Virus record (IMG/VR): IMGVR_UViG_3300043467_001216
Length of the DNA: 64,000 nt
Direction: 5' to 3' (one strand)
Source of the DNA: a virus
Taxonomy: Duplodnaviria > Heunggongvirae > Uroviricota > Caudoviricetes
Positions within the stretch are counted from its first letter, which is position 1. The number at the start of each line of letters is the position of its first letter. The notes below the pieces were generated by a model that was given only the letters and a program-made list of their open reading frames with translations, was not told the origin of the DNA and did not search any database. The translations under genes and the position numbers were made by a program. Of this stretch, positions 2-52,584 are shown piece by piece.

Positions 2-3000
2 TTTGCGGGTAAATCATTAACTGATGGGGGTGGTATTGATGGTGGTTTAGTTTGGGTTTCCCCAAAATACAAATCAAACGCAGGGTTCAAAGCGACACCG
101 GGTGGTGGTTCAGGTTCTAAAGACGAACAATTCAATGAGATATCAAGTAACTTTCAAAAAGCCGAATCATCAGCGATTGATTTCAAGGAGAATTCAATAT
201 TAGACAATACTCAAAGATTAATTGATTCTGCGGATAACGTGTCAGGTGTCAACAGATTAAAACACGTTGGTAATGCGATGAATCAAGTGAGTAAAGTCTT
301 TAATGATGGTTATAAAGAAATGACAAAAGGTTCAATGGTGTTGTCATATAAAGATAACACTGATGGTTCTCAACAAGGTATGGAGTATTGTCGCGTATTT
401 ACAAAAGACACTCCATATTACACTTACGCGGATTTACAAAAAACTGATGGTATAACAACATCGGGAAGACGTTTCACATATTCAGTATTAGATAATACAT
501 ATAATCTTAATATTGCACCATTAAAAGGTGTTGATTCAACAAACATCATACCTGATGATGCTAGTGGTAAGGGAGGTCACGTTAAAAAATATATGTTCTC
601 GATTGAGAACTTAGCTTGGAGAACATCAAGTAAACCTGGTTTAACTTATGATGATTTACCTGTTTGTGAAAGAGGGCCAAATGGGGGTAGAGTTATGTGG
701 TTCCCACCGTATAGTTTACAATTTAATGACACTAGTCAGGCGGATTGGGGACAAGCGGTTTTCTTAGGTAGACCTGAACCAATTTATACGTATAAAAGTA
801 CAAGTAGAACGGGTTCGTTAAGTTGGAAAATAATTGTAGACCACCCGTCTGTTATGAATACAGTTGTTGAAAAACAATTAAAAGGTGCGTCTAAAGAACG
901 AATTGAATCTATTATTGATTCATTTTTTGCTGGATGTGTTAAATACGATATCTATGAACTAGCTATTAAATTTAATACTTTAAGTGTTAGTGATTTGTAT
1001 ACCTATCAAGAAATTTTAAGTAATCCTCGATTAACAGATGTTGAAACAGTATCTCAAATAAATAAAGAAATACCAAAATTACCGTCTGATAACTCAGGAA
1101 CTGCGGGGGCTGATGTTAGTACTAATAATCAACAATCTCAAACTGAACCCGATAGTTCAATTAAAGATTTTGAAAATAATTATTTGGATTTTGCGTTTTA
1201 TTTTGAAAACGACATACCTGGTAAAAATCCGGATACGACAACATCTGAAGAATACGAGTCAATTTATAATACGTATGTTAGTTCGACAAATATTGAAAAA
1301 TATAAAAAAAATGCTGAGAGTGTATTTAAATCAGATGATGTAAACATTCACGTTGGTGGGTTTTTTGATAGTGTAGTTAAAGGTAACTTTAATAAAATTG
1401 CTGGTGGTGATAAAAACTTTATTACTGATGCTTATGATATTTTATCAAAAGGATTGGGTACTATAAGTATTACGATGGAAGGTTCTGCGTCAGCTAAGGC
1501 ATCACCTAGTTATAATAAAAAACTATCCGATAGACGTATTGATACAGTTAAAAAGTTTTTAAAAAGTAAAATTATTGGGACAAAAAGTTTAGGTGAATTT
1601 TTTGATAAGAACTTGATTACGATAGTTAATGAAACGGGTAAAGGTGAAGAAATTGTTATCCCTAAAACAAATGTTGAAACAGGTGCTAATGGTACTACAG
1701 GAACTACAACTGATTCGGGTACAGGAACTGATGTTAAGTGTACAGAGAATCAAGAACCAAGTAAGGCTGGTGTACCTAAGACTACTCAAAATAAAAATAT
1801 AGCTGAAATAAACTCGACAACGGCAATGGCTTGTCGTAGGGTTAAAATTAAATCAATAACGGTAAAACCTAACGAAACAACAACCACAACAACAACTGCA
1901 AGACCGGTTGATGTTACTTCAACGGCAGGTAATACTCAAACAATTCCGGTGAAAAAACCTGAACAACAAGTTAATATTGTTAAAAAAATAAAAGAAGGTA
2001 TATCTAAAAAAATATTAAGAAACTTATTAACTGAGTGTGATTACTTCCAAGTAATTAAAGAAAGTTCACCAATGATATATGATTCATTTAAAGAGAAGAT
2101 TAAATACTTTAACCCAACATTTCACTCGATGACACCTGAAGGGTTAAATGCTCGTTTAACATTCTTAAATCAATGTGTTAGACCTGGTGAAACAATACCT
2201 GTTATTAGTGATAATACTGTTAAAAGTTTGGATGCGGTTAATACATCATTTGGGGCTCCTCCTGTATTAGTACTTAGAATTGGTGACTTCTATAATACGA
2301 AGATTATTCCTGATAGTGTCGCGTTCACGTATGACCCATTAGTGTTAGATATGAATCCCGAAGGTATTGGACTTCAACCAATGATTGCTAATGTTACACT
2401 TAGTTTTAAGATAATTGGGGGTATGGGTTTAAAAGAACCTGTTGACCAATTACAAAACGCGTTATCGTTTAATTATTATGCTAATACTGAAATATATGAC
2501 GAAAGAGCTACTTGGACTGAAGATACCTCAGCGTTAGATAAAATGGTAGTTGATGCTATAGTTGCTAAACAACCACCTGTGAGTGTTAGTAATGATGCCG
2601 CACAACAACAAACAAATGATGCTGGACAAACTATTGGTGAAATCAAAACAACAACACCATTAACACCTAGTGGTGAGACAGGTGAAATGAGTTATATGAA
2701 AATTATGGATGTTTTATACGATAATAGTAAAACGTATTTTACAAACACTTATAATTCTATGGATGAGATTAGAGCTAAAACTAATTATGGTATGTTAAGT
2801 GTTGTGTGTAGTAAAAGAGATTTTATGAAAGGAACATTAAACTTAGGTGGGGTTGAATCAGGTAATGATGTGAAAATATTAGGTAAACCGGTTTATCAAG
2901 ATAATATTGATAAATTATTTAGTAAAGTTATTGATGATATTAATAATGGTAGTAATCCAATATTAGTTGGGTTGGTAGATAAAGGGTTTACTGTTGGTAG

Positions 3001-20538: not shown

Positions 20539-20568
20539 AAAAACTCTCGGCAATGTCGAGAGTTTTTT
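20539..20568 (+). terminator. Intrinsic terminator after nrdA
   Basis: AAAAACTCTCG-GCAATGT-CGAGAGTTTTTT. Confidence 0.85.
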
Positions 20569-20606
20569 ATTTTAGAACGTTATACAAAAAATTCATAACG
20601 ACATTA

Positions 20607-20613
20607 TATTTAT
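20607..20613 (+). promoter_or_regulatory. TATTTAT putative phage late promoter
   Basis: After the nrdA terminator, 5 nt upstream of the gp25 ATG. Confidence 0.55.
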
Positions 20614-20618
20614 GTTAT

Positions 20619-21077
20619 ATGGCAGAAGGATTAACATATGGTATTAATTTTCCCTTTAGGGATTCGTATGATGGTAAATATCTTGATTTATCAAACACGA
20701 ATAGGGAAGAAATACGTTCAAATCTAATTCATTTATTACTAACGAGAAAAGGTACTAGATATTATTTACCTGATTTTGGGACAAGATTATATGAGTATTT
20801 ATTTGAACCATTAGATGGACCAACTTTTTCACAAATAGAATCTGAAATTAGGGATTCTGTTAAAGAATATATTCCCGGTATTACAATTACTAAATTAGAG
20901 GTAACACCAGCGTCAGAGGGTGAGGAAGATAAAGGAACGTTTGTTAATGGTAATGATGAACGAGTTTTTAGAGTGCCAGGTATCGGGACAAAAGAACACA
21001 CTGCAAAAATTAAAATTGATTACTTGTTAAACGATGACGCGTTCAACTCAAGTGATTTTGTTATTATAAATTTATAA
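20619..21077 (+). CDS. Baseplate wedge protein, T4 gp25-like
   Basis: IRSNLIHLLLTRKGTRYYLPDFGTRLYEYLFEP. Start moved to the ATG at 20619 because the ORF-track start lies inside the terminator. Confidence 0.9.
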   Translation: MAEGLTYGINFPFRDSYDGKYLDLSNTNREEIRSNLIHLLLTRKGTRYYLPDFGTRLYEYLFEPLDGPTFSQIESEIRDSVKEYIPGITITKLEVTPASEGEEDKGTFVNGNDERVFRVPGIGTKEHTAKIKIDYLLNDDAFNSSDFVIINL

Positions 21078-21078
21078 T

Positions 21079-22917
21079 ATGGCTAATAAAAAGATTTCGT
21101 ATACTACAAGAGATTTTCAGTCAATAAGAACTGAGTTAATTAATTTTACAAGAACGTATTATCCTGATTTAATTGAGAACGTTAATGACGCGGCGATTTT
21201 CTCGGTGTTCTTAGATTTGAACGCGGCAGTTACTGATAACTTACACTTCAATATTGATAGAAGTATTCAAGAAACGGTTTTACAATTTGCACAACAAAGG
21301 TCTTCAATATATAATATCGCAAGAACTTATGGTTTAAAAATACCGGGTCAAAGACCCTCAGTTGCGTTGGTGGATTTATCAATTACAGTGCCGGCTTACG
21401 GAGATAAAGAAGATTTAAGATACTGTGGTATATTAAGACGAGGTTCTCAGGTGAATGGTGCTGGACAAGCTTTTGAAACTGTGTATGATATTGATTTTGC
21501 ATCACCAATTAGTGGTGATGGTTTTCCTAATCGTTTAAAAATACCTAATTTCGACTCTAATAATAAGTTAATAAATTATACGATTGTTAAAAGAGAGACG
21601 GTAGTTAATGGAGTTACAAAAGTATATAAAAAAGTTATAACACCTAATGATGTTAAACCTTTCTATGAAGTGTTTTTACCTGACAAAAATGTTTTGGGGG
21701 TCACAAGTGTTTTATTAAAAGACGGAACACAATATGGTAATGTCCCTTCAAACCAAGAGTTTTTGGGGCTTGATAATAGATGGTATGAGGTTAAAGCGTT
21801 GGCGGAAGACAGAGTATTCGTTGAAGACCCAACTAAAGTGTCTGATAGTCCTGGTATTAAAGTTGGTAAATATTTGTCGGTAAATGATAAATTTATAACT
21901 GAATTCACACCTGAAGGTTATTTTAAAATGACATTTGGAGGTGGTAATCAATCTGCTGATGAACAATTAAGAGAGTTTGCTAGAAACGGATATAATCTAA
22001 ATTTATACAAATATTCAAATAACTTTGCGTTAGGTAGTACATTAAAATCAAATACAACACTATTCGTTCAGTATAGAGTTGGTGGAGGTCAAGTTAGTAA
22101 TTTGGGTGTTAATGTTATTACACAAATTGGGACTGTATCATTTTTCGTTAACGGACCATCTGAGTCAGTAAACACGAATGTTGTTAACTCATTGTCTTGT
22201 AATAACGTAACTGCGGCTATTGGTGGAGCTGATTATCCAACAATTGAAGAGGTTAGAAACTTAGTGGCGTTTAACTTCTCAGCTCAAAACAGGGCAGTTA
22301 CGGTTAACGATTATGATTCTTTAATTAGAACAATGCCATCACAATTTGGTGCTCCTGCTAAAGTTGCGATTACGGAAGAAAACAACAAAGTTGTTATTAA
22401 AATGTTATCATATGATGAGAATGGTAAGTTAACTGAAATTGTTTCTGACACATTAAAAAATAATGTGGCTAATTACTTATCTAACTATCGAATGATGAAT
22501 GATTATATTTCGGTTCAGGTGGCTAATGTTATTGATTTGTCTTTTACTATTGATGTTGTTTTGGAGAGTAGTCAAAACCAAGGTTCATTAATTACTCAAG
22601 TAATTAATATAGTATCTGATTATTTTGAACCAGGTAATAGACAAATGGGTGAAAATGTTAATGTCTCTGAAATTAGACGATTAATTCAAGCAACTAACGG
22701 TGTTGTTAGTGTTGCTGGTATATCAGTATTTAATAAAGTTGGTGGTCAATACTCATCATCTCAAACATCACAAAGATATCTTGATAAAGACACTAGAGAA
22801 ATTGAATTAATTGATGAAACTATATTTGCAGAACCAAGTCAAACGTACCAAATTAGATATCCAAATAACGATATTAATATTCGAGTTAAGAATCTATCAG
22901 TAACTAATTTTAGTTGA
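21079..22917 (+). CDS. Baseplate wedge protein, T4 gp6/P2 gpJ-like
   Basis: YTTRDFQSIRTELINF N-terminus; AAIGGAD..TIEEVR...AQNRAVTVNDY; follows gp25. Confidence 0.88.
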   Translation: MANKKISYTTRDFQSIRTELINFTRTYYPDLIENVNDAAIFSVFLDLNAAVTDNLHFNIDRSIQETVLQFAQQRSSIYNIARTYGLKIPGQRPSVALVDLSITVPAYGDKEDLRYCGILRRGSQVNGAGQAFETVYDIDFASPISGDGFPNRLKIPNFDSNNKLINYTIVKRETVVNGVTKVYKKVITPNDVKPFYEVFLPDKNVLGVTSVLLKDGTQYGNVPSNQEFLGLDNRWYEVKALAEDRVFVEDPTKVSDSPGIKVGKYLSVNDKFITEFTPEGYFKMTFGGGNQSADEQLREFARNGYNLNLYKYSNNFALGSTLKSNTTLFVQYRVGGGQVSNLGVNVITQIGTVSFFVNGPSESVNTNVVNSLSCNNVTAAIGGADYPTIEEVRNLVAFNFSAQNRAVTVNDYDSLIRTMPSQFGAPAKVAITEENNKVVIKMLSYDENGKLTEIVSDTLKNNVANYLSNYRMMNDYISVQVANVIDLSFTIDVVLESSQNQGSLITQVINIVSDYFEPGNRQMGENVNVSEIRRLIQATNGVVSVAGISVFNKVGGQYSSSQTSQRYLDKDTREIELIDETIFAEPSQTYQIRYPNNDINIRVKNLSVTNFS

Positions 22918-36500: not shown

Positions 36501-36582
36501 TAATTCAATATGTTCTGAAAACAGTCAGGGGTTGAATTTTAAAATTAATGTTGGAATAAATTTAAATTTATGTTGTAATTAA
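33508..36582 (+). CDS. Baseplate wedge protein (T4 gp7/P2 gpI-like), 1024 aa
   Basis: IPSQLLKNLAQTLGW...LILNSAYLFKSKGTRKSVETLMRLIG resembles the gpI/gp7 KGT motif. Confidence 0.65.
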   Translation: MAIKKYTCPPTPASGAGTFSDDLVGFQLVQGGGLTQGNFNFVTSITEKRNRNFITGTFSEPINLTNLGLSDIAQSKQVFEANFKVYPNFDLSQVTNFTMYGSLTKRISVSVQKIISYFPAAIESTFVGVNYVTGKTASNIVYNKLNNTTTFDLDITRIRNQFDIDFTNESTRNLELREIPVSPLRNLTVEYSKYLMYYQNEVCDIIFIQPTNSLTTGTLTVSVSGKPFGDNTEVFQNIVIRPNDYEVSKVFNENFDEVEKFLLNRQSTPIYTSNFTVPVENDDGTYISTKQKLTWPLNGTWNIDIMTGSFNLYLTQLNDVVENIDGYKTNLISRFLTTGSFKEFDTIGQKTEKTLQIYGRSFDETKKFIDALAYMNSVNYNVGNDIPSQLLKNLAQTLGWNTNISPITKEDFLKSVFGEKNQDKSQFSGVKTALTPDELNYQYFRNLILNSAYLFKSKGTRKSVETLMRLIGAPDALVEFNEHVYLVDRPINLRQFNSQFAQISGGTYVEQKIVLDANDVFTFQGVTYTGVTTEFSIKDVSLTRNEFPMDDYGYPIAPDDSESYYFQIGSGWFEQTPAHRAPEDIKRTSNTFVGSNPDYQTSLIPYTYGQVYLDRFRRFPFMSLGYNLTKTIDNNKSWVINEVGTRANLDGGYNSKYIVDDEKLVLNVKNIDLHMNPAQGLVYDVWYMSREVNYPIPNEGLFYIAPTHCNPTPYSTNNMKMSNTQFQSSFPNVQYPMKGGVDWTEIDPKPKRQTFFEFAQSFWKNMINVRNRQYMTNGKSMGYPTLESIYWKYLLSEKAIGVTNNNFTYDTMIQYVNGLGDYWIRLVEQMIPATTIWTTGVKYENSVFHRQKHAWRRQRGCIIVPVPCKPCATVSNFLPIDCPIQSVECSIYPSGTSNTITTFSGVLGKVINDYLTSIDKTADNCNLNALQTEWYVDLRLNDSIIIQNKFFNGSGYNVLAFSSPTNTQWYNALVVALDDLESDGYSYTLTNDGKVIIYNSICSENSQGLNFKINVGINLNLCCN

Positions 36583-38726
36583 TGAGTTGTAGTTTAAATT
36601 ATAGTCTTGTTGGTGTAACAGGTGACTGTAGTAATATTAGTGGTGGTTCGTTCAGTATTACAATTACAGGAAGTGCTCCTGATTATAGAATTGAGTGGGT
36701 AAATCCACCTTTAAGTACTGTTTTTTTAGGACCGGGAGTTACAGCGTACACTGCAACATCTTTAACCGCTGGAACGTACTCATTTTTAATTAAAGATAGT
36801 TGTATTGACCCTGAAAATCAAAGTCAGATAGCGTCAATTTATGTGTCAAGTGGGTTATGTACAACAATAACAGGTGTGACTAACACTGTTTGTGATTTAA
36901 ACAATGGTTCACTAAGTGCTTACACGCAATATGATTATGGTAGTAATTTATATTATCTATATCACACAACTTTAGGTTATATTACATCGGGAACAACGAA
37001 TTTAGTGTCAGGACGTTCATTTCAAGGGTTAAGTGCCGGAACGTATTATATGAAAGTTGTTGATAATGGTGGTTGTACTGCAACAACAAATAGTGTTATT
37101 ATCCAAGATTCGACAAATTTAGATTATGATTTGTATGTTGTTAATGATGCCGGTTGTAACGTTAATTCGGGTAAAATTTTTATTAATAATATTAATGGTT
37201 CACCACCTTACACTTATTTATGGTCGAATGGTAAAACAACATCGTCAATAAGTGGTTTAACTCAGGGGTCTTATAGTGTAACTGTTAGTGACAATTCAGG
37301 TTGTGTTGTTGTTAAAACTGCGGATGTGTTAAAAGTTCCGTTAGTTGGACAAGCGGGTCTTTTTGTGACTCAACCATCTTGTTTTGGTAATAATGGGTCA
37401 ATTGAAATAATACTTTCAGGTGGAACTCCACCATTTTTCTATTCGGGTTCAAACGGTACTACCTCAGTAACTTTTGATAGGACAATTAGTTTTAATGGAT
37501 TGGGTGCTGGTAACTTTAATTATTTTGTTCAGGATGCTGGATTATGTTCGTTTATTAGTAGTGTTGCGTTAATCACACCATCATCATTTAATATTGTGTC
37601 AATAACTACAACTAATTCATCGTGTGGTAATAATCAAGGGACATTAAATGTTAATATTTCATCAGGAACACCACCATATGTGTACAAGTTAGTTAACACA
37701 ACGGGTGTTGAGAATTCAATTAGTACGACACTACCAACATACACTTTTACACAATTGGCTTCCGATACATACACTTTTTCAATTACGGACGGTAGTGGAT
37801 GTCAATATGTTAATCAATATGAAATATTAAATGAAGAAGTATTCACATTTACTTTTGTAGTAACGGGTACAACTTGTTCTAAAAATGATGGTATTGTAAA
37901 AATTAATGTTGTTGGTGGTTCAGGCCCATATGTGTATGAATTGAATGGTGAGAGTATAGAGACAAATTTAACTACCGCAACATTTAGTTCATTACCTTCA
38001 GGTAGTTACACCGTTAATGTTACAGATACAGGTGAAAATTGTATTCAGTCTTCAACAGTGTTAGTTAATAGTTCAGAGGGTGTTGATTTCATTTATAATT
38101 CTGGTAATGCGAATTCATCAAATAATGGTTATATTCAATTGTTTATAACAAAAGGTAAAGCTCCTTACACTATAGAATGGAGTGATAATGTTAACGGTCA
38201 GACGGGTTTACTTGTAACAAGTTTGTCAGCGGGAACATATACGGCTAAAGTAACTGATAATAATGGTTGTATTAAAATTAGGACTATAGTGTTAGTTGGT
38301 GTAAATTGTGCAATTACTTATGGTATTTATAATTTATGTGATAGTGAATTTATGAATAATGGTGAATTACTTGAAAAAACACCGATATTAATGTTAAATG
38401 AAGGTTATGTGGATTTAACTGTTGATGAAAATAATTGTATTTTAAATGAAGCTACTTTTGAAGCAATTACAATTGTTAATGAGGTAACTGAAAGTTTAAT
38501 ATTTTATACGACTACATCATTAACGGACGCACCAAGTGAGACATTATTTGCAACTACTGTTAGAAATTTATTGTTGGGTTATGATGGTATTGGTAATGTT
38601 ACAATTAATACAAACACCAATAAAATTACTATCACATCTGATTGTGGTTCAGATGTTAATTTATTAGATTCTAATATCTTAGTTAAATTAAAAATCAATT
38701 ACGAAATATCTTGTGAGACAAGTTAA
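36582..38726 (+). CDS. SprB-repeat fibre/adhesin-like protein
   Basis: About seven G..PY.Y.W....GL..G.Y.V.V.D..GC units, e.g. GSPPYTYLWSNGKTTSSISGLTQGSYSVTVSDNSGC. Confidence 0.75.
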   Translation: MSCSLNYSLVGVTGDCSNISGGSFSITITGSAPDYRIEWVNPPLSTVFLGPGVTAYTATSLTAGTYSFLIKDSCIDPENQSQIASIYVSSGLCTTITGVTNTVCDLNNGSLSAYTQYDYGSNLYYLYHTTLGYITSGTTNLVSGRSFQGLSAGTYYMKVVDNGGCTATTNSVIIQDSTNLDYDLYVVNDAGCNVNSGKIFINNINGSPPYTYLWSNGKTTSSISGLTQGSYSVTVSDNSGCVVVKTADVLKVPLVGQAGLFVTQPSCFGNNGSIEIILSGGTPPFFYSGSNGTTSVTFDRTISFNGLGAGNFNYFVQDAGLCSFISSVALITPSSFNIVSITTTNSSCGNNQGTLNVNISSGTPPYVYKLVNTTGVENSISTTLPTYTFTQLASDTYTFSITDGSGCQYVNQYEILNEEVFTFTFVVTGTTCSKNDGIVKINVVGGSGPYVYELNGESIETNLTTATFSSLPSGSYTVNVTDTGENCIQSSTVLVNSSEGVDFIYNSGNANSSNNGYIQLFITKGKAPYTIEWSDNVNGQTGLLVTSLSAGTYTAKVTDNNGCIKIRTIVLVGVNCAITYGIYNLCDSEFMNNGELLEKTPILMLNEGYVDLTVDENNCILNEATFEAITIVNEVTESLIFYTTTSLTDAPSETLFATTVRNLLLGYDGIGNVTINTNTNKITITSDCGSDVNLLDSNILVKLKINYEISCETS

Positions 38727-39808: not shown

Positions 39809-40798
39809 ATGATTGATGAATTAGTTTTTGTATCTGCACAACCTGACATTTCGTATTTTCATTGGCAAACTAAAATTTACATATATAATTTTATTAGTAA
39901 TGGGGTTAAACCTCATCAAATTCATGTTTTGTTTGTTATTTTAAATGGTTCTCAACCTAGTGAAGAATCTTTAATGTTAAAACAATTAGGGGTTAATGTT
40001 CATCATTATGAAGATACTCGAATTGATAAACGATATATCCCGACTTTAAGACCTTTAATTTTATCTAAATGGTTAAAAGAATACCCTGAATTAGGTAAAT
40101 GTTATTTTTATCACGATTCTGATATTATTTTTAGGGAGTTACCGGATTTTGAGAGTCTATTAAATGACGATTTTAGTTATTTGTCGGACACTATCTCATA
40201 CATTGGGTATGATTACATTAAAGAATGTTCAAAACGTTATGAGGATAACCATATTCAATTATATGAAGGTGAATTATTAGACAGGATGTGTAACGTTATT
40301 GGAATATCACCTGAGATTGTTAAAGAAAATCAACTTAATTCTGGAGGTGCTCAATATCTAATTAAAAATACTGATTATTTGTATTGGGAGAAAGTTTTTG
40401 AAGATAGTGAAAATTTGTACAAAATGTTATTTAACTTTCATAAAACTCATCCCATTCAGCACGAGATTCAAATGTGGACTTCAGATATGTGGGCGGTATT
40501 ATGGAATCTTTGGTTAAGAGGTAATGAAACACGTGTCACTAAAAAATTATCGTTTTCTTGGGCTACGGACACCATAGAACAATATGAAAATAAACCGATA
40601 TTACATATGGCTGGAGTTACTTACGATTTAAGTAAAACCAAATTTTATAAAGGTGAATTTATAAATGTTAACCCACTTAAACTTTTAAGTGAGGATGATA
40701 ATTATTTTGACTACATAGAAGATAATAGTTCAACAAAAAAGTATGTGGATGTTATGAAATCATTGATAAAAAACCAAAAAACTGATTATTTATTATAA
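39809..40798 (+). CDS. GT-A-fold glycosyltransferase resembling plant HPAT (GT95) / SGT1 (GT96) peptide O-glycosyltransferases
   Basis: Collinear motifs SYFHWQT, YIPTLRP...KWL, YHDSDIIFR (DxD), GGAQYL, WTSDMWA, PILHMAG. Confidence 0.7.
   Translation: MIDELVFVSAQPDISYFHWQTKIYIYNFISNGVKPHQIHVLFVILNGSQPSEESLMLKQLGVNVHHYEDTRIDKRYIPTLRPLILSKWLKEYPELGKCYFYHDSDIIFRELPDFESLLNDDFSYLSDTISYIGYDYIKECSKRYEDNHIQLYEGELLDRMCNVIGISPEIVKENQLNSGGAQYLIKNTDYLYWEKVFEDSENLYKMLFNFHKTHPIQHEIQMWTSDMWAVLWNLWLRGNETRVTKKLSFSWATDTIEQYENKPILHMAGVTYDLSKTKFYKGEFINVNPLKLLSEDDNYFDYIEDNSSTKKYVDVMKSLIKNQKTDYLL
40787..40793 (+). promoter_or_regulatory. TATTTAT putative phage late promoter
   Basis: 17 nt upstream of ATG 40811, overlapping the end of the glycosyltransferase gene. 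Confidence 0.5.
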
Positions 40799-40810
40799 AT
40801 AATATAATTT

Positions 40811-41179
40811 ATGCCAGAATCAACAAATAGGAATCAATGTGGGGTATTAACAATATTCCCAATGTCTGTTACTTGTAATTCGACAAATCCGTCGACAATA
40901 ACTGCGTCAGATGGTATTGCTAGTTTAGTTATCAATGGTGGTACGCCGCCATATTCAATAACTTGGGCTAATGGTAGTCTAACACAAACAATTACTAATT
41001 TAAGTGTTGGGTCATATACCGCAACTGTTACAGATTCAAATGGTGATTATGTCATTAAAAGTACTTGTGTGTTAAGTGTAACCACGACAACAACATCAAC
41101 CACAACAACAACAACATTACCACCTTGTGTTGATTTCTGTTTGGATTTTACACCCATTGATACGGGTGGATATTATTGA
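40811..41179 (+). CDS. Single SprB-repeat protein with poly-Thr tail (probable N-terminal half of a split fibre gene)
   Basis: GGTPPYSITWANG...NLSVGSYTATVTDSNG; TTTTTSTTTTTTLPP; ends at TGA-TAA-TAG. Confidence 0.65.
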   Translation: MPESTNRNQCGVLTIFPMSVTCNSTNPSTITASDGIASLVINGGTPPYSITWANGSLTQTITNLSVGSYTATVTDSNGDYVIKSTCVLSVTTTTTSTTTTTTLPPCVDFCLDFTPIDTGGYY

Positions 41180-41219
41180 TAATAGACGACGATAAATGAT
41201 AAATAAGATTTAAATATAA

Positions 41220-42302
41220 ATGTATTTTTTTGATTTAGATAAGTTCCATTTTAATTGTGATGGGTATTATAATGGTAAACAATCGTGGTTATCGGATGAT
41301 ACTCAAATTAAAATAATTTGGGATACAACATTAACACCAAATTGTTGGAGATTTTCTAGTACAACATATAATTTGTTTGATACTGTAATAAATATTAATC
41401 CCGCTAGTCCACCAATTAATGGGAATTGGACTTGGGTTGGTAGGGAATATGAAATAACTGCAACACAGGGTGAATGTTCAGATAATGAAGAATTAACAAT
41501 GATTGTTGTTAAAAATAACCCGTCTTGTGAATGTGATGCTAATATCACTCTTTATGGTGAAGGGGGTCAACCACCGTATCAGTATTCATTCGATAATGGT
41601 GTTACATATGGTAATTCACCATTTAAAGATGGTTTGTGTGGTGATTTAAGTTTAACAGTTAAGATTAAGGATAGTGAAGGTACAATTTTTAGTAAATTAG
41701 TTGAAATTCCGGCTCTAATAGAATCAGTTAATTACGTTATTAAGTTAACAGAAATAAGTTCAACAGTGATAACTGTAAATAATCCACGAGTTGAAGAATT
41801 TAAATATAGTGTTACTGTGACACCACCATTACCTAATGGTGTTAGTATTAATTTTAACTTAAATCTTGGAGGTACATTTGTTAAATCACCGTATTCGAAT
41901 TCGGCAACATCGTCATTTAATCCTCAAGTTAAAAAGAATGGTGTTGTAATAACAAACTATACGGATAATACTGCAACAACAACAACAACAAATACCTCAC
42001 CATCGTGTCAAGAATTTCAATTATATACTACTGAATATGAGTATAATTATACTAATTTATCGTATACTAATTCAGATACCTATGAAATTACGGTAATACC
42101 AACATATCAATTAACCTGTAGTAATCCTGCACCATCGACATTATCGTTAGGTCCTTTAAGTTTTCAACAGTCGAATACTGCTTTAAATTGTTGTAATGCT
42201 TATTTCTCAACAACAAATAAATATAGTCTTACAGGTCTAAATATTGAAGGTTGTATTTGTTGTTCGGTATCAAATTGGGAATACTTCTATACTAGAAGTT
42301 AA
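41220..42302 (+). CDS. Cys-rich fibre-like protein with one SprB-like repeat (probable C-terminal half of a split gene)
   Basis: YYNGKQSW module, GGQPPYQYSFDNG...KIKDSEG repeat; starts MYFFDL like the 38750 gene. Confidence 0.6.
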   Translation: MYFFDLDKFHFNCDGYYNGKQSWLSDDTQIKIIWDTTLTPNCWRFSSTTYNLFDTVININPASPPINGNWTWVGREYEITATQGECSDNEELTMIVVKNNPSCECDANITLYGEGGQPPYQYSFDNGVTYGNSPFKDGLCGDLSLTVKIKDSEGTIFSKLVEIPALIESVNYVIKLTEISSTVITVNNPRVEEFKYSVTVTPPLPNGVSINFNLNLGGTFVKSPYSNSATSSFNPQVKKNGVVITNYTDNTATTTTTNTSPSCQEFQLYTTEYEYNYTNLSYTNSDTYEITVIPTYQLTCSNPAPSTLSLGPLSFQQSNTALNCCNAYFSTTNKYSLTGLNIEGCICCSVSNWEYFYTRS

Positions 42303-42320
42303 AAATAAAAAAAATAAAAA

Positions 42321-44753
42321 ATGGGATATATTTTAAAAAATACAACAGGATTAATAAATAGTAAATTAACAGATACCGCAAGACAAATGTTGTCACAAGG
42401 TAAGTTTAATATTAGTTTTTTCCAAGTAGGGGATAGTGAAATGTTGTATAACACATTACCCTCGAATTATTTAATCAGTAATACTATGATATTAGAATCA
42501 GGTTTTAACGCTCAGAATTCTAGTGGTGTTCCTGAATCGAATAAACAAAACGTTAAATATCCGTATTATGTTGATGGTAATAATGGAAACACTTATGGTA
42601 TACCATATATGGATTCTGTTATAAGTCCAATTTATAATACTGCGGCTATGAGAGGTTTTTTCACAGGTGATACAAGTGTTTTACCAACTAGTTGGAGTGC
42701 ATCAACTGGTAATGATTATGTTAAAACATCAAATTATGTTGTTAATATGTCTAGTTTTACAGGTGGGACGACACTACAATTATTAAATGACTCTTGTAAT
42801 CCCGTTCAGTATACTCAATTTGAAAGGGGTGATTTTATTACGTTATACATAGATAATTTAGGTGCGTCAAATTGTGGGTGTGAAAATTTACCAACACCAA
42901 CACCAACACCGAGTATGTACTCAACACCAACACCAACCCCATCGGCACCACCATCACCAGGTAGTCCTTGTGCGTCACCTACACCTACACCATCACCTTC
43001 GGCATCTTATTGTCCCGACCCAACACCGGCACCATTAAAAACTGAATGTGTGATGTCAATGGCGTCTTGTTATTCAATATTAACGTATAGGATAGTTGAT
43101 GTGTGTGGTAATAAAATAACGTTAGATAGAACTACTCCTGACTTTTCAAATATTACATTCGTGAGTTGTTATGCGAGGGCGTTGGTTTATCCTAAAAAAA
43201 TGACTGATTTATATGATAGTATAACTCCATTGAATCATTATAATGATGATATCATTAATTTTGAATCGGTTTGTTCTCAAGATGAGTTTGACGTTAAAGT
43301 TTGGAATATGAATATTCCTTGGTCTGAAAATTTAGCTGGATTAGATTCGGGTGTTTATAAAGATTACCCACAATTTGGTTCGGTTAATTATTTGGGAACT
43401 AAAGAATATTTGGGTTATATGTCAAATAGTGGACAAACTTTTTTCATAAGTAATCAATTTAGTGCAGAAACTACGGATACGTATTATTACAATTCATTTG
43501 CGGAAATTGTTAAAGTTGAACCTGAAGAACAAAAGGCGATTGGTATAATTCATTATACAAATCAAACAATTGATTTATTCTATGGGGAAAAATTCGCGTT
43601 ACAACCATATGACCCAACGGCTCCTTATGATACTACGGGACAAGCAAGGAATTTTAAATTACATTTGCCTTGGTTAATGTGGCATAAAAATCCTGAATGT
43701 TGTATGGGTGAAACTTTTTGGGTTGACCCTCCAGGGTTTGAAGACCCTAGTGTTGTGTTATTTCAAGAACGATATATACAATCAACTAAGAATGAGGATA
43801 TGAATTCACCGGGTATTAGATATTATCATTTATGGGATACAAATATAAATCCTGATGGTTATCCTAACAGAGTTGGAAAAGTCTTCCCTGATGATAGGAT
43901 TATCATTATAGATGACGAAGAATTATTGGCTGCAATGTCTTATAAATCAAATCGAAATTGGACTTTACCGGCACCTAAATTATTTTTATCAACACCTAAC
44001 ACTTGTAATAGTTTAGGTAGTTCATTAGGTGTTTTAACAAATTCAAATGAGACTATGTTTGTTACGTATAGGTTTACAAATACAACGGCATTTACAAATT
44101 CATTACATTGTAATTATTATACAAAAATAACCGGACCTGATGTTGTTTGTAACCCTTCAAACTCTGAGAATGTTGGTGTTAGATTTAGTACAGGTTTCCC
44201 TTGTTTGGATTATTACGAAGATACGTTTAAACAAGGATTTTTTGCTGAAAAAATTGAAATTATTTGTCAAAAAGTTACAACAGGTAATCGACCACAATCT
44301 GATAGTTGGAGGGTTATTGATATGACTGATGTTTTAAGTGCAAATACAATCAATGGTTACATTACTCAGGATGCAATTACTGGTAGTACATTTGTTATTA
44401 CTAAAGAATTGTATGATGCTGCGGTAAATGATATTTATGATTTAGGTGATTATATTGATATTACACAGGAAGGTTCTACGGGACTACAATTAAACTTTGG
44501 TGATGAATATTATTTCTATGGGTCTTTAGAAACTGATATACAAGCGACCATATATGAAATGGTCTATAAACTGAATTTATCTAACTCTGAATTTCAGACC
44601 TCATCAAATCCTACGTGGAATACGGGAACAAAACCATATATTACTGAACTTGGTCTTTACGATTCTGATAAAAATCTTATGATTGTATCAAAACTACAGT
44701 CTCCCGTTTTAAGACAAGGGATTCAACAGTTTTTAATTAAATTTGATTTTTAA
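42321..44753 (+). CDS. Tail fibre-attachment/baseplate protein (P2 gpH N-terminal-like) with Pro/Thr insert
   Basis: N-terminal SKLTDTARQMLSQG..NISFFQVGDSE and C-terminal YITELGLYDSDKNLMIVSKLQSPV resemble the gpH/DUF3751-type fold; internal PTPTPTPS stretch. Confidence 0.55.
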   Translation: MGYILKNTTGLINSKLTDTARQMLSQGKFNISFFQVGDSEMLYNTLPSNYLISNTMILESGFNAQNSSGVPESNKQNVKYPYYVDGNNGNTYGIPYMDSVISPIYNTAAMRGFFTGDTSVLPTSWSASTGNDYVKTSNYVVNMSSFTGGTTLQLLNDSCNPVQYTQFERGDFITLYIDNLGASNCGCENLPTPTPTPSMYSTPTPTPSAPPSPGSPCASPTPTPSPSASYCPDPTPAPLKTECVMSMASCYSILTYRIVDVCGNKITLDRTTPDFSNITFVSCYARALVYPKKMTDLYDSITPLNHYNDDIINFESVCSQDEFDVKVWNMNIPWSENLAGLDSGVYKDYPQFGSVNYLGTKEYLGYMSNSGQTFFISNQFSAETTDTYYYNSFAEIVKVEPEEQKAIGIIHYTNQTIDLFYGEKFALQPYDPTAPYDTTGQARNFKLHLPWLMWHKNPECCMGETFWVDPPGFEDPSVVLFQERYIQSTKNEDMNSPGIRYYHLWDTNINPDGYPNRVGKVFPDDRIIIIDDEELLAAMSYKSNRNWTLPAPKLFLSTPNTCNSLGSSLGVLTNSNETMFVTYRFTNTTAFTNSLHCNYYTKITGPDVVCNPSNSENVGVRFSTGFPCLDYYEDTFKQGFFAEKIEIICQKVTTGNRPQSDSWRVIDMTDVLSANTINGYITQDAITGSTFVITKELYDAAVNDIYDLGDYIDITQEGSTGLQLNFGDEYYFYGSLETDIQATIYEMVYKLNLSNSEFQTSSNPTWNTGTKPYITELGLYDSDKNLMIVSKLQSPVLRQGIQQFLIKFDF

Positions 44754-44754
44754 T

Positions 44755-45354
44755 ATGAGAAAAACTTTAAAAGAAAGTCCCAAAGTATTGGGACTTGATA
44801 TCTCAACAAAAACTATTGGATGGGCGTTGTTCGAAATTAAAAGTGGTGATTTGTTAGAATTGACACACATATCGCCAGTCCCAAAACCAAAAGAAGAGTG
44901 TAAAATTAAGGAATTGTTACTTAAAAGTGACATTTTTAAAACAAAGTTAGAACAATATAAAGGATTAGGAATTACTAAAATAATAATAGAAGAACCATTA
45001 TTAAATTCAAATAATATCCGAACAGTTCAAACGTTATTAAGATTTAATAGTTTTGTTTGTAAAGTAATTTACGACACATTAGGTATTATACCGGATTTCA
45101 TTTCAACATATGAGTCAAGAAAAAATGCTTTTCCTGAATTAGTTCAAGAAAATGATAAAGGTAAATTTGTTCTATTTGGTGGGTTACCTAAAGATATTGA
45201 TAAGAAAATGATTGTTTGGGAAAAGGTTGCAAAACGAGAACCACAGATACAGTGGTTATATACTAAAAATAATACATTGAAAAAAGAAAATTTTGACCAA
45301 ACAGATGCTTATTGTTGTGTTTTAGGATTTATGAAACAACTTAAAATTTGGTAA
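44755..45354 (+). CDS. ruvC: RuvC-like Holliday junction resolvase
   Basis: VLGLDISTKTIGW, IIIEEP, DQTDAY acidic catalytic motifs; start placed at the ATG after the upstream stop. Confidence 0.75.
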   Translation: MRKTLKESPKVLGLDISTKTIGWALFEIKSGDLLELTHISPVPKPKEECKIKELLLKSDIFKTKLEQYKGLGITKIIIEEPLLNSNNIRTVQTLLRFNSFVCKVIYDTLGIIPDFISTYESRKNAFPELVQENDKGKFVLFGGLPKDIDKKMIVWEKVAKREPQIQWLYTKNNTLKKENFDQTDAYCCVLGFMKQLKIW

Positions 45355-45368
45355 ATTATTTTAATAAT

Positions 45369-45400
45369 AAAAAAAGGGAAGATAAAACTTCCCTTTTTTT
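45369..45400. terminator. Bidirectional intrinsic terminator between convergent operons
   Basis: AAAAAAAGGGAAG-ATAAAA-CTTCCCTTTTTTT between ruvC (+) and the mucin-like gene (-). Confidence 0.9.
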
Positions 45401-45455
45401 ATGCCCTTTTGTTTTGTAATTAGGAAATGTTTTACATAACAAATATAATAAAAAA

Positions 45456-48095
45456 TTATTGTAATTCTATAAATCCTGTACCGTCTTGTAGTATAATGTA
45501 ATCACCTGTCTGTAGTAATAATAAATTACCTGTCAATGTTGTAGGTGTTGGTGTTGGTGTACTTGAAGGTGTGTATGATGGGGTTTGACTTGGTGTGTAT
45601 GATGGGGTTTGTGTGTTAGTTGGTGTTATACTATTTGTTGGGGTTTGTGTGTTAGTTGGTGTAATACTATTTGTTGGTGTAATACTATTTGTTGGGGTAA
45701 CAGTGTTAGTTGGTGTGATGGTGTTAGTTGGTGTGATGGTGTTAGTCGGAGTTACAGTTCTTGTCGGTGTTTGAGTATTGGTTGTTGTTGGTGTTGGTGT
45801 CGGTGTTGGACAAGGGTTTGATGAAGTACAAGATAAGCAATCAAAATCACCATCAACTTGAGGGTAAACAGGTTTAGTGTTATCCCAAACAATGGTTGGT
45901 GAACCTATTGCTGGATATGTCCCAACTTTATAACAATATCCATTAGTTGCGACAACAACATAATTAGCGTCAACTCCGGCATATGTGATAGGAATACTAA
46001 TAACATCATATGTGACGTATGTCCCACAACAAGGGTATGCTTCGGCAATAACATAAATAGTTGTTGGTGTTGGTGTTATTGTATTTGTTGGCGTTTGGGT
46101 AGGTGTTTTAGTTACTGTTGATGTTATTGTATTTGTCGGTGTTATTGTATTTGTTGGCGTTTGAGTCGGAGTTTCTGTGTTTGTTGGTGTTTGGGTGATA
46201 GTATTTGTAGGTGTTTGAGTGATAGTATTAGTAGGGGTTTGGGTGATAGTATTAGTAGGGGTAATTGTGTTAGTTGGTGTAGGGGTATTTGTGGGTGTTT
46301 CGGTGTTAGTTGGTGTAATTGTGTTAGTTGGTGTTGGGGTATTTGTAGGTGTTTCAGTGTTAGTTGGTGTAATTGTGTTAGTTGGTGTTTGGGTTGGAGT
46401 TTCCGTAACAGTTGATGTTATTGTGTTAGTTGGTGTTTGGGTTGGAGTTTCTGTATTCGTTGGTGTAATTGTATTTGTTGGAGTTTGGGTTGGAGTTTCT
46501 GTATTCGTTGGTGTAATAGTATTCGTTGGTGTTTGTGTTGGGGTTTCTGTATTAGTTGGTGTAATTGTATTTGTTGGTGTTTGAGTTGGGGTTTCTGTGT
46601 TCGTAGGTGTAATTGTGTTAGTTGGTGTTTGAGTTGGGGTTTCTGTGTTCGTAGGTGTAATTGTGTTAGTTGGTGTTTGTGTTGGGGTTTCAGTATTAGT
46701 TGATGTTATCGTATTAGTTGGTGTTTGAGTTGGGGTTTCAGTGTTCGTAGGTGTAATTGTATTTGTTGGTGTTTGAGTTGGTGTTTCAGTGTTCGTGGGT
46801 GTAATAGTATTCGTTGGAGTTATAGTATTCGTTGGGGTTTGTGTTGGTGTCTCAGTATTAGTTGATGTTATCGTATTAGTCGGTGTTTGAGTTGGGGTTT
46901 CAGTGTTCGTAGGTGTAATTGTATTTGTAGGCGTTTGTGTTGGAGTTTCAGTGTTAGTCGGCGTTTGTGTTGGGGTTTCAGTGTTCGTAGGTGTAATTGT
47001 ATTTGTTGGGGTAATTGTGTTGGTCGGAGTTTGTGTTGGTGTCTCAGTATTAGTTGATGTTATTGTATTTGTTGGTGTTTGTGTTGGTGTCTCAGTATTA
47101 GTTGATGTTATTGTATTTGTTGGTGTTTGAGTTGGAGTTTCAGTAACAGTTGGGGTTATTGTGTTAGTTGGAGTTTGAGTTGGTGTTTCAGTATTAGTTG
47201 ATGTTATCGTATTTGTTGGAGTTTGAGTTGGTGTTTCAGTATTAGTTGATGTTATCGTATTTGTTGGAGTTTGAGTTGGTGTTTCAGTTACTGTTGGAGT
47301 TTGTGTTGGAGTTTCAGTGTTAGTTGATGTTATTGTGTTAGTCGGCGTTTGAGTTGGTGTTTCTGTGTTCGTAGGTGTAATTGTATTTGTTGGGGTAATT
47401 GTGTTAGTTGGAGTTTGAGTTGGTGTTTCAGTGTTCGTAGGTGTAATTGTATTTGTTGGGGTAATTGTGTTGGTCGGAGTTTGTGTTGGTGTTTCTGTGT
47501 TCGTAGGTGTAATAGTATTCGTTGGTGTTTGTGTTGGTGTCTCCGTATTAGTTGGTGTGATAGTATTAGTTGGTGTAGGGGTTTGTGTTGGAGTTTCAGT
47601 ATTAGTTGGTGTGATAGTATTAGTTTGAGTAGGAGTTTGTGTTTGAGTTTCAGTATTAGTCGGTGTAATTGTGTTAGTTGGGGTTGGTGTTTGTGTTGGT
47701 GTCTCCGTATTAGTTGGTGTAATAGTATTGGTTTGAGTTGGTGTTTGTGTATACGTAGGTGTAACTGTTGGTGTTTGTGTATACGTAGGTGTAACTGTTG
47801 GTGTTTGAGTATTTGATGGTGTAACTGTAGGAGTGATTGTTGGGGTAGGGGTTGGTGTTTTGGTTAATACTAAGTAACAATAAACTATTTCAAATCTTTC
47901 ACAATCGTGTGAAATTATTCTAACACCAACGGCAGGTGCGGTGTTAAATAATGGGGGTAAATATATTTGATTAGTCGGAGGTATGTTTGTGTCAACTGTT
48001 GCAACTAAGATACATTGATTACCGAATACGTCACATACATATATATTATATGGGAATGATAATCCTGTAATATCTGTAATCTGAATTGATGTCAT
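45456..48095 (-). CDS. Mucin/extensin-like Thr-Pro repeat protein, putative virion fibre (879 aa)
   Basis: ~75-aa Cys-containing N-domain, ~600-aa TPT repeat, ~80-aa Cys-rich domain, second TP block, C-terminal LLLQTGDYIILQDG motif; own TATTTAT motif upstream. Confidence 0.75.
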   Translation of the reverse strand: MTSIQITDITGLSFPYNIYVCDVFGNQCILVATVDTNIPPTNQIYLPPLFNTAPAVGVRIISHDCERFEIVYCYLVLTKTPTPTPTITPTVTPSNTQTPTVTPTYTQTPTVTPTYTQTPTQTNTITPTNTETPTQTPTPTNTITPTNTETQTQTPTQTNTITPTNTETPTQTPTPTNTITPTNTETPTQTPTNTITPTNTETPTQTPTNTITPTNTITPTNTETPTQTPTNTITPTNTITPTNTETPTQTPTNTITSTNTETPTQTPTVTETPTQTPTNTITSTNTETPTQTPTNTITSTNTETPTQTPTNTITPTVTETPTQTPTNTITSTNTETPTQTPTNTITSTNTETPTQTPTNTITPTNTITPTNTETPTQTPTNTETPTQTPTNTITPTNTETPTQTPTNTITSTNTETPTQTPTNTITPTNTITPTNTETPTQTPTNTITPTNTETPTQTPTNTITSTNTETPTQTPTNTITPTNTETPTQTPTNTITPTNTETPTQTPTNTITPTNTETPTQTPTNTITPTNTETPTQTPTNTITPTNTETPTQTPTNTITSTVTETPTQTPTNTITPTNTETPTNTPTPTNTITPTNTETPTNTPTPTNTITPTNTITQTPTNTITQTPTNTITQTPTNTETPTQTPTNTITPTNTITSTVTKTPTQTPTNTITPTPTTIYVIAEAYPCCGTYVTYDVISIPITYAGVDANYVVVATNGYCYKVGTYPAIGSPTIVWDNTKPVYPQVDGDFDCLSCTSSNPCPTPTPTPTTTNTQTPTRTVTPTNTITPTNTITPTNTVTPTNSITPTNSITPTNTQTPTNSITPTNTQTPSYTPSQTPSYTPSSTPTPTPTTLTGNLLLLQTGDYIILQDGTGFIELQ
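45538..45810 (-). repeat. Second Thr/Pro repeat block (TPTNSI/TPTNTQ/TPSY)
   Basis: Visible in both the sequence and the translation. Confidence 0.9.
46061..47866 (-). repeat. Coding tandem repeat of TPTNTI / TPTNTE / TPTQ modules
   Basis: Visible GT-rich repeat on the + strand; third-codon positions vary between units while the peptide is kept. Confidence 0.95.
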
Positions 48096-48108
48096 AATAT
48101 ATTTAATA

Positions 48109-48115
48109 ATAAATA
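48109..48115 (-). promoter_or_regulatory. TATTTAT putative phage late promoter (minus strand)
   Basis: ATAAATA on the + strand, 13 nt upstream of the mucin-like gene start. Confidence 0.55.
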
Positions 48116-48138
48116 TTTCAAAGTTGATTTATTTAAAA

Positions 48139-50307
48139 TTAAGGATAAACATAAGTTGAATTTATAATACCGGCAGTACTACTCCACACATCAATATAAT
48201 TACCTGTTGTGTCAAAATTTGAAATTTGTTGTGCTTGTATTTTATATTGTAATGGTGACCAACTTGTAACAACAACATTATGTGAAAATACTGTTTGTGC
48301 GTAATTATTACCTGATTGATATGTATGATTTTCCCAATCCCAAGTTCTACCTGATAACGAAGGTATTAGTGTGTTAGTAAAACCTGATGCTGGGTATGTG
48401 AGGTTAGAATAAGTATTGTAAATAACTAAACTACCTGTAAATGATGAGTTGGTTCTGGTACTTGTTTGTGATTTTAAACCATTAACGTCAGTAAATGGTG
48501 TTGTTCGTCTATAGCCTGTTACGTTACGAATGTAACCTGTTAAATTTCTAGTTGCGTTTGCGTTGATGGCTAAGTTTTGGTTATTACAATTAGAACAAGT
48601 GTTAGGACAAACGTAGTTATTAGAAATTAACGGTGTTGTAATATACATATAGTAATTAAATCCTGGGTATGGAGTTGTGTTACCTGAACTAATTACTGAA
48701 GAATAATGGAATTCCAATTCTTCATAACTTGGTGTTGAGTCACCACAAGTTGGTGTTCCGTTATAGACTGATAATCTTATGAATTTATAATAACTGTATG
48801 TTAAACTATTACTTGAGTATGCACCACAAGACGCGACTATTGATGCTTGAGCTGCCGACCAATCAGTGTAATATACGTTTAAATCCGACAAACTAGTAAA
48901 GTAAATTTCAACCTTTGTTGTTGCGGTTTTAACAACTTTTATTTGTTGACCTGGAATGTTAACACATACACCTGAACGACCCGGACCACAACTTGTTATT
49001 TCGTTAAAATTGTCATATAATGAATAACCTGTGTCTAAACCAAGTAATTTGGTGGTATTATCGGTTGCTATGTTATTAAAAATTGAACTTGTGTTGAGTT
49101 TAACTAATGTAGATTCGGTAAAACCTGTAGTTTCATTAACACTACAACCACTGACAGAATAATTGACTTTGTATTTACCACAAGTATCAGGTCCTAATAT
49201 TTGAATAGTTGATGCTTTAATTTTATAAGGTTTGTTTCGATATGAATCTAAACAAGTTTTAGTTGCGGTAGGTAACGTTGAACAACCAAAGGAGTATTTC
49301 CAAGTAGTTGAATTATTACTTGGGTTAGGTGTGACATTAATAATTATTTTATCGTTATTATTTACCGTTAATCCTGTTAATACGGTTATTTTTTTAAAAT
49401 TAGTGTAATAATATAATTTAGGCCAAGTAGTTGGGGTAAAATCGACACTTCCTGCGTCATCACCAACCCTAATTTCCTCAAGTAAAATTGGTTGAGGGTA
49501 AGAGCTACCTACAAAGGTTAATTTAAGAGTGTCATATATACTTAAACCCTCAAATTTCCAAATAAATGCTTTTGTTGTTGAGTTTATAACGAAAACTGCG
49601 GATAATGAATCAGGTGCTATACTACTATCAGTATATACGAATTCTTTATAATGAGTATATAGTGGGTCAGGACCTCCGGTTCCGTTATTACAATTATAAG
49701 GTGAAACAATAACACTACTCGAACAACCTGTTAAATTACAAGAAATTATGTTACCTGTACCTCCCGTTGAAGAAAATTTAACACCATTTAGTTCGACTTT
49801 TCTAATTCTTGAGGTGTAAGTACCGTCAATTAAGATTGGTGAGTTTACATTATTTATAGGGTGGGTATATTGGTATTCACCTGAAAATAACGTACCTTTA
49901 CCTGATGTAAATGCTAAACTAGTTGAAGGGGCTGGGCCATACCAATCAATTACGAAGTTACTTATGTCATTATCACAAGTTCCGGATAAACCATTCACGT
50001 TAATAAGTGAAGTTAAGTTATTGGTAACACCACTTAATCCTAATGTACAAGTGTAACAAACATTATTATTACTAACAGCTATATCAACATAACAAAAACT
50101 TACAGGGTCAAAAATACGAATATTTTCAGTACCATCAGGAACTAAAAAAGTGAAAGGACAATTTGCACCTGTTATTGATGTTGTTGGTATTGTTCTAACA
50201 AAGATTCCTGGATTTAGGGTTGATACAGGATTACTATAAACACTTAACGTTGGACCTAGTGGTGATGTACCCGTGTTACTTAGACAAGCCGATACGGAAA
50301 ATGACAT
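48139..50307 (-). CDS. Putative tail fibre/receptor-binding protein, paralog A (722 aa)
   Basis: Beta-rich, Cys-rich; N-terminal half clearly homologous to the adjacent 50326 gene. Confidence 0.6.
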   Translation of the reverse strand: MSFSVSACLSNTGTSPLGPTLSVYSNPVSTLNPGIFVRTIPTTSITGANCPFTFLVPDGTENIRIFDPVSFCYVDIAVSNNNVCYTCTLGLSGVTNNLTSLINVNGLSGTCDNDISNFVIDWYGPAPSTSLAFTSGKGTLFSGEYQYTHPINNVNSPILIDGTYTSRIRKVELNGVKFSSTGGTGNIISCNLTGCSSSVIVSPYNCNNGTGGPDPLYTHYKEFVYTDSSIAPDSLSAVFVINSTTKAFIWKFEGLSIYDTLKLTFVGSSYPQPILLEEIRVGDDAGSVDFTPTTWPKLYYYTNFKKITVLTGLTVNNNDKIIINVTPNPSNNSTTWKYSFGCSTLPTATKTCLDSYRNKPYKIKASTIQILGPDTCGKYKVNYSVSGCSVNETTGFTESTLVKLNTSSIFNNIATDNTTKLLGLDTGYSLYDNFNEITSCGPGRSGVCVNIPGQQIKVVKTATTKVEIYFTSLSDLNVYYTDWSAAQASIVASCGAYSSNSLTYSYYKFIRLSVYNGTPTCGDSTPSYEELEFHYSSVISSGNTTPYPGFNYYMYITTPLISNNYVCPNTCSNCNNQNLAINANATRNLTGYIRNVTGYRRTTPFTDVNGLKSQTSTRTNSSFTGSLVIYNTYSNLTYPASGFTNTLIPSLSGRTWDWENHTYQSGNNYAQTVFSHNVVVTSWSPLQYKIQAQQISNFDTTGNYIDVWSSTAGIINSTYVYP

Positions 50308-50325
50308 AATGTTATTATTTTAAAT

Positions 50326-52557: not shown

Positions 52558-52584
52558 AATATTATTATTTTTATTTTATCTTAA

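Follow-up and report, generated by a model that had tools for sequence, protein, structure and literature searches.

A phage glycosyltransferase family distantly related to plant SGT1/HPAT and its association with poly-threonine tracts on virion proteins

We examined a glycosyltransferase gene of a tailed phage, asking how its product is related to the plant SGT1/HPAT enzymes and which acceptor it may serve. The gene (39809..40798, plus strand) lies in a window of 64,000 nucleotides, the whole stretch of DNA that was analyzed, which belongs to a viral record of 173.7 kb that is 59% complete. The open reading frame is intact, starts with ATG, encodes 329 aa and is present as one copy in the whole record. 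An earlier note had proposed that this protein resembles the plant enzymes along its whole length, extends the families GT95 and GT96, and could represent their prokaryotic or viral root.

The transferase and its family

Searches of Pfam, NCBIfam and PDB sequences with the 329-aa protein gave no match. The profile phrog_4417, annotated as function unknown, matched it over the full length (E 9e-66, residues 7-318 against profile positions 3-290 of 293). The phrog_4417-type family is large, comprising 1984 clusters at 90% identity and 845 at 50%. A membrane anchor was not found in the 329-aa protein, with a top 19-residue hydropathy of 0.83 and a domain that begins at residue 5; the transferase is a soluble, cytoplasmic enzyme that carries no secretory-pathway anchor.

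The five motifs quoted in the earlier note are all present and in order, namely SYFHWQT (residues 15-21), YIPTLRP...KWL (76-89), YHDSDIIFR (101-109), WTSDMWA (223-229) and ILHMAG (264-269). They correspond to the most conserved columns of the phage family and are shared with plant SGT1 domains, and this part of the proposal holds. Among 145 diverse family members, conservation is 97% at W19, 99% at Y76 and D103, 100% at D105, 98% at W223, and 99% at M227, H266 and K281, and position 226 is Asp or Glu in 85% and Gly in 12%. The N-terminal Y-F-x-W-Q-T motif (39854..39871, plus strand) is common to plant SGT1, and W223-T-S-D-M-W (40475..40492, plus strand) aligns with an SGT1 counterpart, W-x-S-E-M-Y. 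The DxD motif D103-S-D105 (40115..40123, plus strand; 99-100% conserved) is predicted from GT-A enzymology to bind metal and diphosphate. H266 and K281 (40604..40651, plus strand) do not vary in plant and bacterial SGT-like domains either and, by analogy to GT8-type enzymes, are likely a metal ligand and a diphosphate contact.

Relation to plant SGT1/HPAT and bacterial PF23452 proteins

The AlphaFold model of the transferase (pLDDT 95) has a GT-A fold. Its top neighbors in a PDB fold search were GT8/GT24 enzymes, with glycogenin at Z 15.1 and rmsd 3.7 over 232 aligned residues; across these structures, TM was at most 0.48, Z 13-15 and identity 6-12%. However, a model of the plant SGT1 domain retrieved these GT8 structures with equal Z, and the matches therefore describe the wider fold group rather than the family. 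A placement within GT8 was considered unlikely on this ground. The searches surfaced no solved structure of plant GT95/GT96 enzymes, and the structural closeness to HPAT/SGT is one between predicted models: beyond the family's own clusters, the best Atlas row was a chlorophyte cluster whose members carry PF23452 in 99% of cases (TM 0.72). Conversely, when the plant SGT1 domain model was used for a viral fold search, the top match was the phage transferase family (E 4e-12, TM 0.58), followed by a runner-up at 3e-9 and TM 0.47. These reciprocal matches support the view that this is a stand-alone phage glycosyltransferase with a specific HPAT/SGT1 affinity, even with GT8/GT24 enzymes heading the PDB search.

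For direct comparison of sequences, we used two two-domain plant proteins retrieved from metagenome contigs with a short motif as bait and confirmed by Pfam PF23452 (E about 1e-40); these domains are all SGT1-type, with no GT95 (HPAT proper) among them. The phage-family profile scored 6.7-13 bits against the four plant SGT domains, compared with a maximum of 5.4 in 1000 shuffles, and hhalign of the phage family with plant SGT1 gave 47% and E 2e-4. A joint alignment of phage, bacterial and plant rows contains 13 invariant columns with the motifs in the same order. Identity of the transferase to the plant domains is 15-16%, and its middle, about residues 110-215, aligns poorly to them. At the PF23452 gathering cut-off (23.9 bits) the 329-aa protein gives no match, and 3 of 54 family members match PF23452 weakly (best E 0.046). 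The likeness to SGT1 exceeds chance but is weak, and the affinity to the HPAT/SGT1 superfamily is specific though remote. By Pfam cut-off or membrane anchor, the transferase is not a GT95/GT96 member; of that proposed placement, the superfamily kinship in fold and motifs remains.

Proteins that score over the PF23452 cut-off also occur in bacteria and form at least 150 clusters, many of which include fusions with PqqD, prolyl-hydroxylase, GT60-like or O-fucosyltransferase domains. The bacterial PF23452 profile scored 85-88 bits against the plant SGT1 domains (hhalign 99.7%, E 3.5e-25), whereas the phage-family profile scored 7-13 bits against the same domains. Because the bacterial family is much closer to plant SGT1, the idea that the phage enzyme represents the root of the plant family is unsupported. 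Bacterial PF23452 proteins and the phage family align collinearly over 257 columns (hhalign 82%, E 1e-5), and the phage family stands as a distant sister group. The PF23452-type bacterial family was not found in viral contigs, and among 301 genomes from a single phylum scanned for PF23452, the seed genome was the sole match. One Acidimicrobiales cluster (L008) holds both a bacterial PF23452 protein and a phrog_4417-type fusion. Furthermore, at bacterial PF23452 loci (L238:1006-3567, L239 and L008) the protein is fused to, or adjoins, PqqD, prolyl 4-hydroxylase, GT60-like and O-fucosyltransferase domains, an arrangement suggestive of a bacterial pathway for Hyp/Ser peptide glycosylation.

In Bacteroidota and Actinomycetota, members of the phage transferase family are also encoded on chromosomes. 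The Bacteroidota homologs are about 580 aa long, some with a GT7C domain, and their clusters contain small leader-type peptides, radical-SAM/ATP-grasp maturases and peptidase-type ABC exporters (L014:2179-8940, L011, L032, L037, L047). One of them adjoins a small peptide with a Thr-rich stretch at its end. These clusters are candidates for glycosylated peptide natural products, and their peptide-maturation genes fit a peptide acceptor.

Threonine runs in the window and across phages

The transferase gene lies in a long co-directional run together with baseplate wedge and SprB/Ig-like virion-type genes, in a record that carries T4-type capsid, portal, terminase and baseplate genes. The baseplate wedge genes (20553..22917, plus strand) mark this run as a virion module, which includes upstream a 714-aa SprB-repeat virion-like protein (36582..38726, plus strand). 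The next gene downstream (40811..41179, plus strand) encodes a 122-aa Ig/SprB-like protein with a weak Hoc-like decoration match and Thr runs at 41081-41116, and its product is the prime candidate acceptor. Further candidate acceptors are the product of a 360-aa gene (41220..42302, plus strand) with a five-Thr run at 41976-41990, and a large protein encoded upstream of a baseplate-wedge-like gene with a seven-Thr run at 1877..1897 (plus strand). The known 59% of this genome holds only five runs of at least five Thr. The 122-aa and 360-aa genes form one fused protein in 51 relatives; here the split (40811-42302) consists of three consecutive stops followed by a new ATG, as it does in the two closest relatives. 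We also observed that the genes at 38750 and 41220 open with 20 identical bases (MYFFDL), and that the 38750 gene is a variable module, since just 1 among 80 related loci has a homolog of its full length.

Farther downstream, an 810-aa conserved gene (42321..44753, plus strand) served as the lineage anchor. It has a Thr-rich insert in most relatives with the transferase and none in relatives without it; the copy in this window has no insert. On the opposite strand, an 879-aa Thr-Pro repeat protein with 111 TPT (45456..48095, minus strand) carries a repeat type that does not track the transferase and is probably not its main acceptor. It is one of four minus-strand genes (45456-53712), two with long Thr-Pro repeats, which face the virion run across a strong hairpin at 45367-45402. 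A promoter scan gave chance levels only. Outside the window, at 64714-81534 of the genome, GT60-like (PF11397), GT11, GT25 and HtrL/YibB genes come directly after the gene for a 3795-aa protein containing 235 TPT repeats, and may constitute with it a second glycosylation system, one that serves Thr-Pro repeats. The same genome contains a cluster of GT2/GT1 and sugar-pathway-like genes at 42115-53321 in whole-record coordinates.

Related loci retrieved by the 810-aa gene at 42321 carry the transferase in 42 of 80 cases. Runs of at least five Thr occur in 40 of 42 loci with the transferase versus 10 of 31 without (Fisher 7e-9, not corrected for kinship); among 4 independent pairs, 2.7 changed the same way and 0.1 the opposite way, which is not significant (sign test, p about 0.25). 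TPT repeats had a median of 29 with the transferase versus 37 without, and two complete relatives are rich in TPT repeats and have no transferase. In this lineage, the transferase tracks contiguous Thr runs, not Thr-Pro repeats. Action on Thr-Pro repeats is weakened as an explanation by these counts and relatives, and because the repeats do not track the enzyme, the contiguous Thr run is the likely acceptor. A GT60-like PF11397 gene was present, in place of the transferase or in addition to it, in 5 of 5 lineage records tested, and the Thr-Pro repeats may be served by that enzyme.

A tblastn search of GenBank phages yielded 77 records with a homolog, whose hosts include Lactobacillus, Enterococcus, Staphylococcus, Lactococcus, Clostridium, Chryseobacterium and Arcanobacterium. 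Mycobacteriophages were absent from these 77 matches. All nine cultured phages examined have poly-Thr tracts on a capsid, tail-tube, decoration or adjacent virion-module protein, and in eight the tract lies within or just past the directly upstream gene. In seven of the nine, the transferase gene comes right after the gene for the capsid or the tail tube, or after an extension of that gene; it follows a small tail protein in Iacchus and an unannotated protein in MA9V-3. In bIL285, the transferase follows the capsid gene, yet the Thr tag is on the tail tube. Additionally, phages nattely (L166:6725-6860) and RQ1 (L164:6620-6931) have a poly-Thr tract that lies immediately beyond the stop of the capsid or tail-tube gene and in a different frame, which suggests programmed frameshifting that tags only some subunits.

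The phiFL-like phages offered a comparison of 27 loci retrieved by the tail-tube gene and not by the transferase. Thr tails were found on both capsid and tail tube in 12 of 12 loci with the transferase and 0 of 15 without, and absence of the gene was confirmed by whole-record searches, with seven records at least 90% complete. The two tailed genes lie about 2.4 kb apart, and their tails change together with the transferase. On the capsid tree there were 3 trait changes, all coupled, with only 1 contrast on a starred branch. Among 39 R3.3-like loci, 37 have the transferase and 36 of these a capsid Thr tail (one frameshifted). One complete Lacticaseibacillus-type phage without the transferase has an Ig domain on its capsid instead and keeps the tail-tube Thr tail. 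In the reverse direction, viral records selected for a poly-Thr DNA pattern contained the transferase in 9 of 31 cases, and those selected for poly-Glu in 0 of 20; many of the remaining 22 poly-Thr records are fragments or non-coding repeats. Linkage between neighboring genes accounts for part of this co-occurrence, and independent contrasts are few (4 own-lineage pairs and 3 phiFL changes).

Proposed function, alternatives and known systems

Because its gene accompanies poly-Thr tracts, the transferase can be given a likely function, and we consider it probable that it is an initiating Thr O-glycosyltransferase for virion proteins. Catalysis, with Thr as the acceptor, is probable. The enzyme would be made late and in the cytoplasm together with the virion proteins, and would bind a metal and a host nucleotide-sugar through D103, D105, H266 and K281. 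It would then move the sugar directly onto the hydroxyls of contiguous Thr runs in exposed tails or linkers of capsid, tail-tube, decoration and fiber proteins, giving a mucin-like glycan coat on the particle. GT95/GT96 and GT8 enzymes are retaining, and the same stereochemistry would be expected here. In the jumbo phage studied here, other transferases (GT60-like, GT11, GT25, GT2) could extend the glycan. Possible benefits of such a coat include shielding, solubility, linker stiffening and adhesion. We infer the initiating role because the nearest characterized kin, SGT1 and HPAT, are initiating protein O-glycosyltransferases (PMC8012813) and because small phages carry the gene with no prolyl hydroxylase, GT2 or GT60 detected. 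In five near-complete small carrier phages, PF13640, PF00535 and PF11397 were not found, and annotation plus three Pfam searches detected no other transferase in phiFL1A; small carrier phages need no prolyl hydroxylase or GT2/GT60 partner.

The transferase might instead elongate, with a host or second phage enzyme adding the first sugar to Thr and the transferase the next. The solved structural neighbors do include elongating GT8/GT24 enzymes, family fusions to GT7C and GT60-like domains exist, and among the phage's own genes is one for a GT60-like enzyme, which might place the first sugar on Thr; Firmicutes hosts, moreover, own Ser/Thr glycosylation systems. However, the closest kin initiate, phiFL1A has no other transferase by the searches above, and hosts from Bacillota, Bacteroidota and Actinomycetota would not have an initiator in common, which makes elongation unlikely. 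It is quite unlikely that phage DNA or the host surface is the target of the transferase (for anti-restriction, receptor masking or serotype conversion), with the poly-Thr link as mere hitch-hiking. Such roles are common for phage transferases (PMC12619734), many carriers are temperate, and the genome studied here has a separate sugar-pathway cluster. Nevertheless, the gene sits inside head or tail operons, at differing positions, in unrelated phages, and the capsid and tail-tube tails of phiFL-like phages change with it across the distance between their genes; the enzyme has no membrane anchor, and the annotation of phiFL1A lists no gene for base hydroxymethylation.

A structural or non-catalytic role, with the protein binding Thr tails as a chaperone or minor virion component, would accord with a gene among structural genes and with Gly at position 226 in some members, but is very improbable given that the DxD motif, H266 and K281 are 99-100% conserved in the 145 members and invariant in plant SGT domains. 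HPAT-like action on hydroxyproline in Thr-Pro repeats, as in plant extensins, is scarcely credible: this genome is rich in TPT repeats and prolyl-hydroxylase domains are fused to bacterial PF23452 proteins, but PF13640 (prolyl hydroxylase) was found neither in the 59% complete record nor in the five near-complete carriers (a host enzyme might substitute in either), the Thr tails of Firmicutes phages are nearly Pro-free, and the TPT counts and TPT-rich relatives described above point the other way.

With initiating Thr O-glycosylation as the preferred reading, phages bearing the transferase probably sugar-coat their own particles. On a broader proposal our judgment is evenly divided: that one SGT1/HPAT-superfamily enzyme and a poly-Thr tag for any virion protein form a portable two-part module, widespread in tailed phages of several phyla, which would coat dairy, gut and freshwater phages with mucin-like glycans, and that the enzymes constitute a new glycosyltransferase family with chromosomal members glycosylating ribosomally synthesized peptides. 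From this family one can predict, down to the gene and the modified positions, that virions would be glycosylated in cultured phages of Lactococcus, Lactobacillus, Enterococcus, Staphylococcus, Clostridium and Chryseobacterium. If true, this would provide a function for phrog_4417, bear on phage encounters with antibodies and mucus, offer small soluble stand-ins for plant GT95/GT96 enzymes, and make a single enzyme with a short tag a handy tool for bacterial O-glycosylation. Our literature search, in which most subscription journals were outside coverage, found no paper on the phrog_4417-type family, poly-Thr tags or HPAT/SGT in phages, and no report of a virion glycan in transferase-carrying phages.

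Among known systems, plant and algal SGT1/SERGT1 is a peptidyl-serine alpha-galactosyltransferase (CAZy GT96) and HPAT a Hyp O-arabinosyltransferase (GT95), both under Pfam PF23452. The phage enzyme has in common with them the GT-A fold, motif order, invariant columns and reciprocal best structural matches, and likely also initiating protein O-glycosylation on low-complexity tracts. In contrast, it is single-domain, cytoplasmic and unanchored, low in identity and below the Pfam cut-off, and its predicted acceptor is Thr runs rather than Ser-Hyp4 or Hyp, with no prolyl hydroxylase partner. The uncharacterized bacterial PF23452 proteins belong to the same superfamily but lie far nearer to plant SGT1 and occur together with hydroxylases. 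GT8/GT24 enzymes (glycogenin, LgtC, UGGT) are the best solved-structure neighbors and differ by the low TM and identity given above.

As far as we found, virion glycosylation among tailed bacteriophages is shown for mycobacteriophages; ten other phages that were screened showed none (PMC12894461). In Che8 and its kin (Freeman et al. 2023), phage transferases glycosylate capsid and tail-tube C-termini, as related in PMC12619734, PMC11256854 and PMC12894461. Both systems link a phage-encoded transferase to Ser/Thr-bearing capsid or tail termini. However, mycobacteriophages reportedly have several transferases away from the structural genes, whereas here one gene lies inside the structural operon, and the dedicated poly-Thr tags come and go with the enzyme. 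The phage studied here adds a separation, within one lineage, of Thr runs from Thr-Pro repeats.
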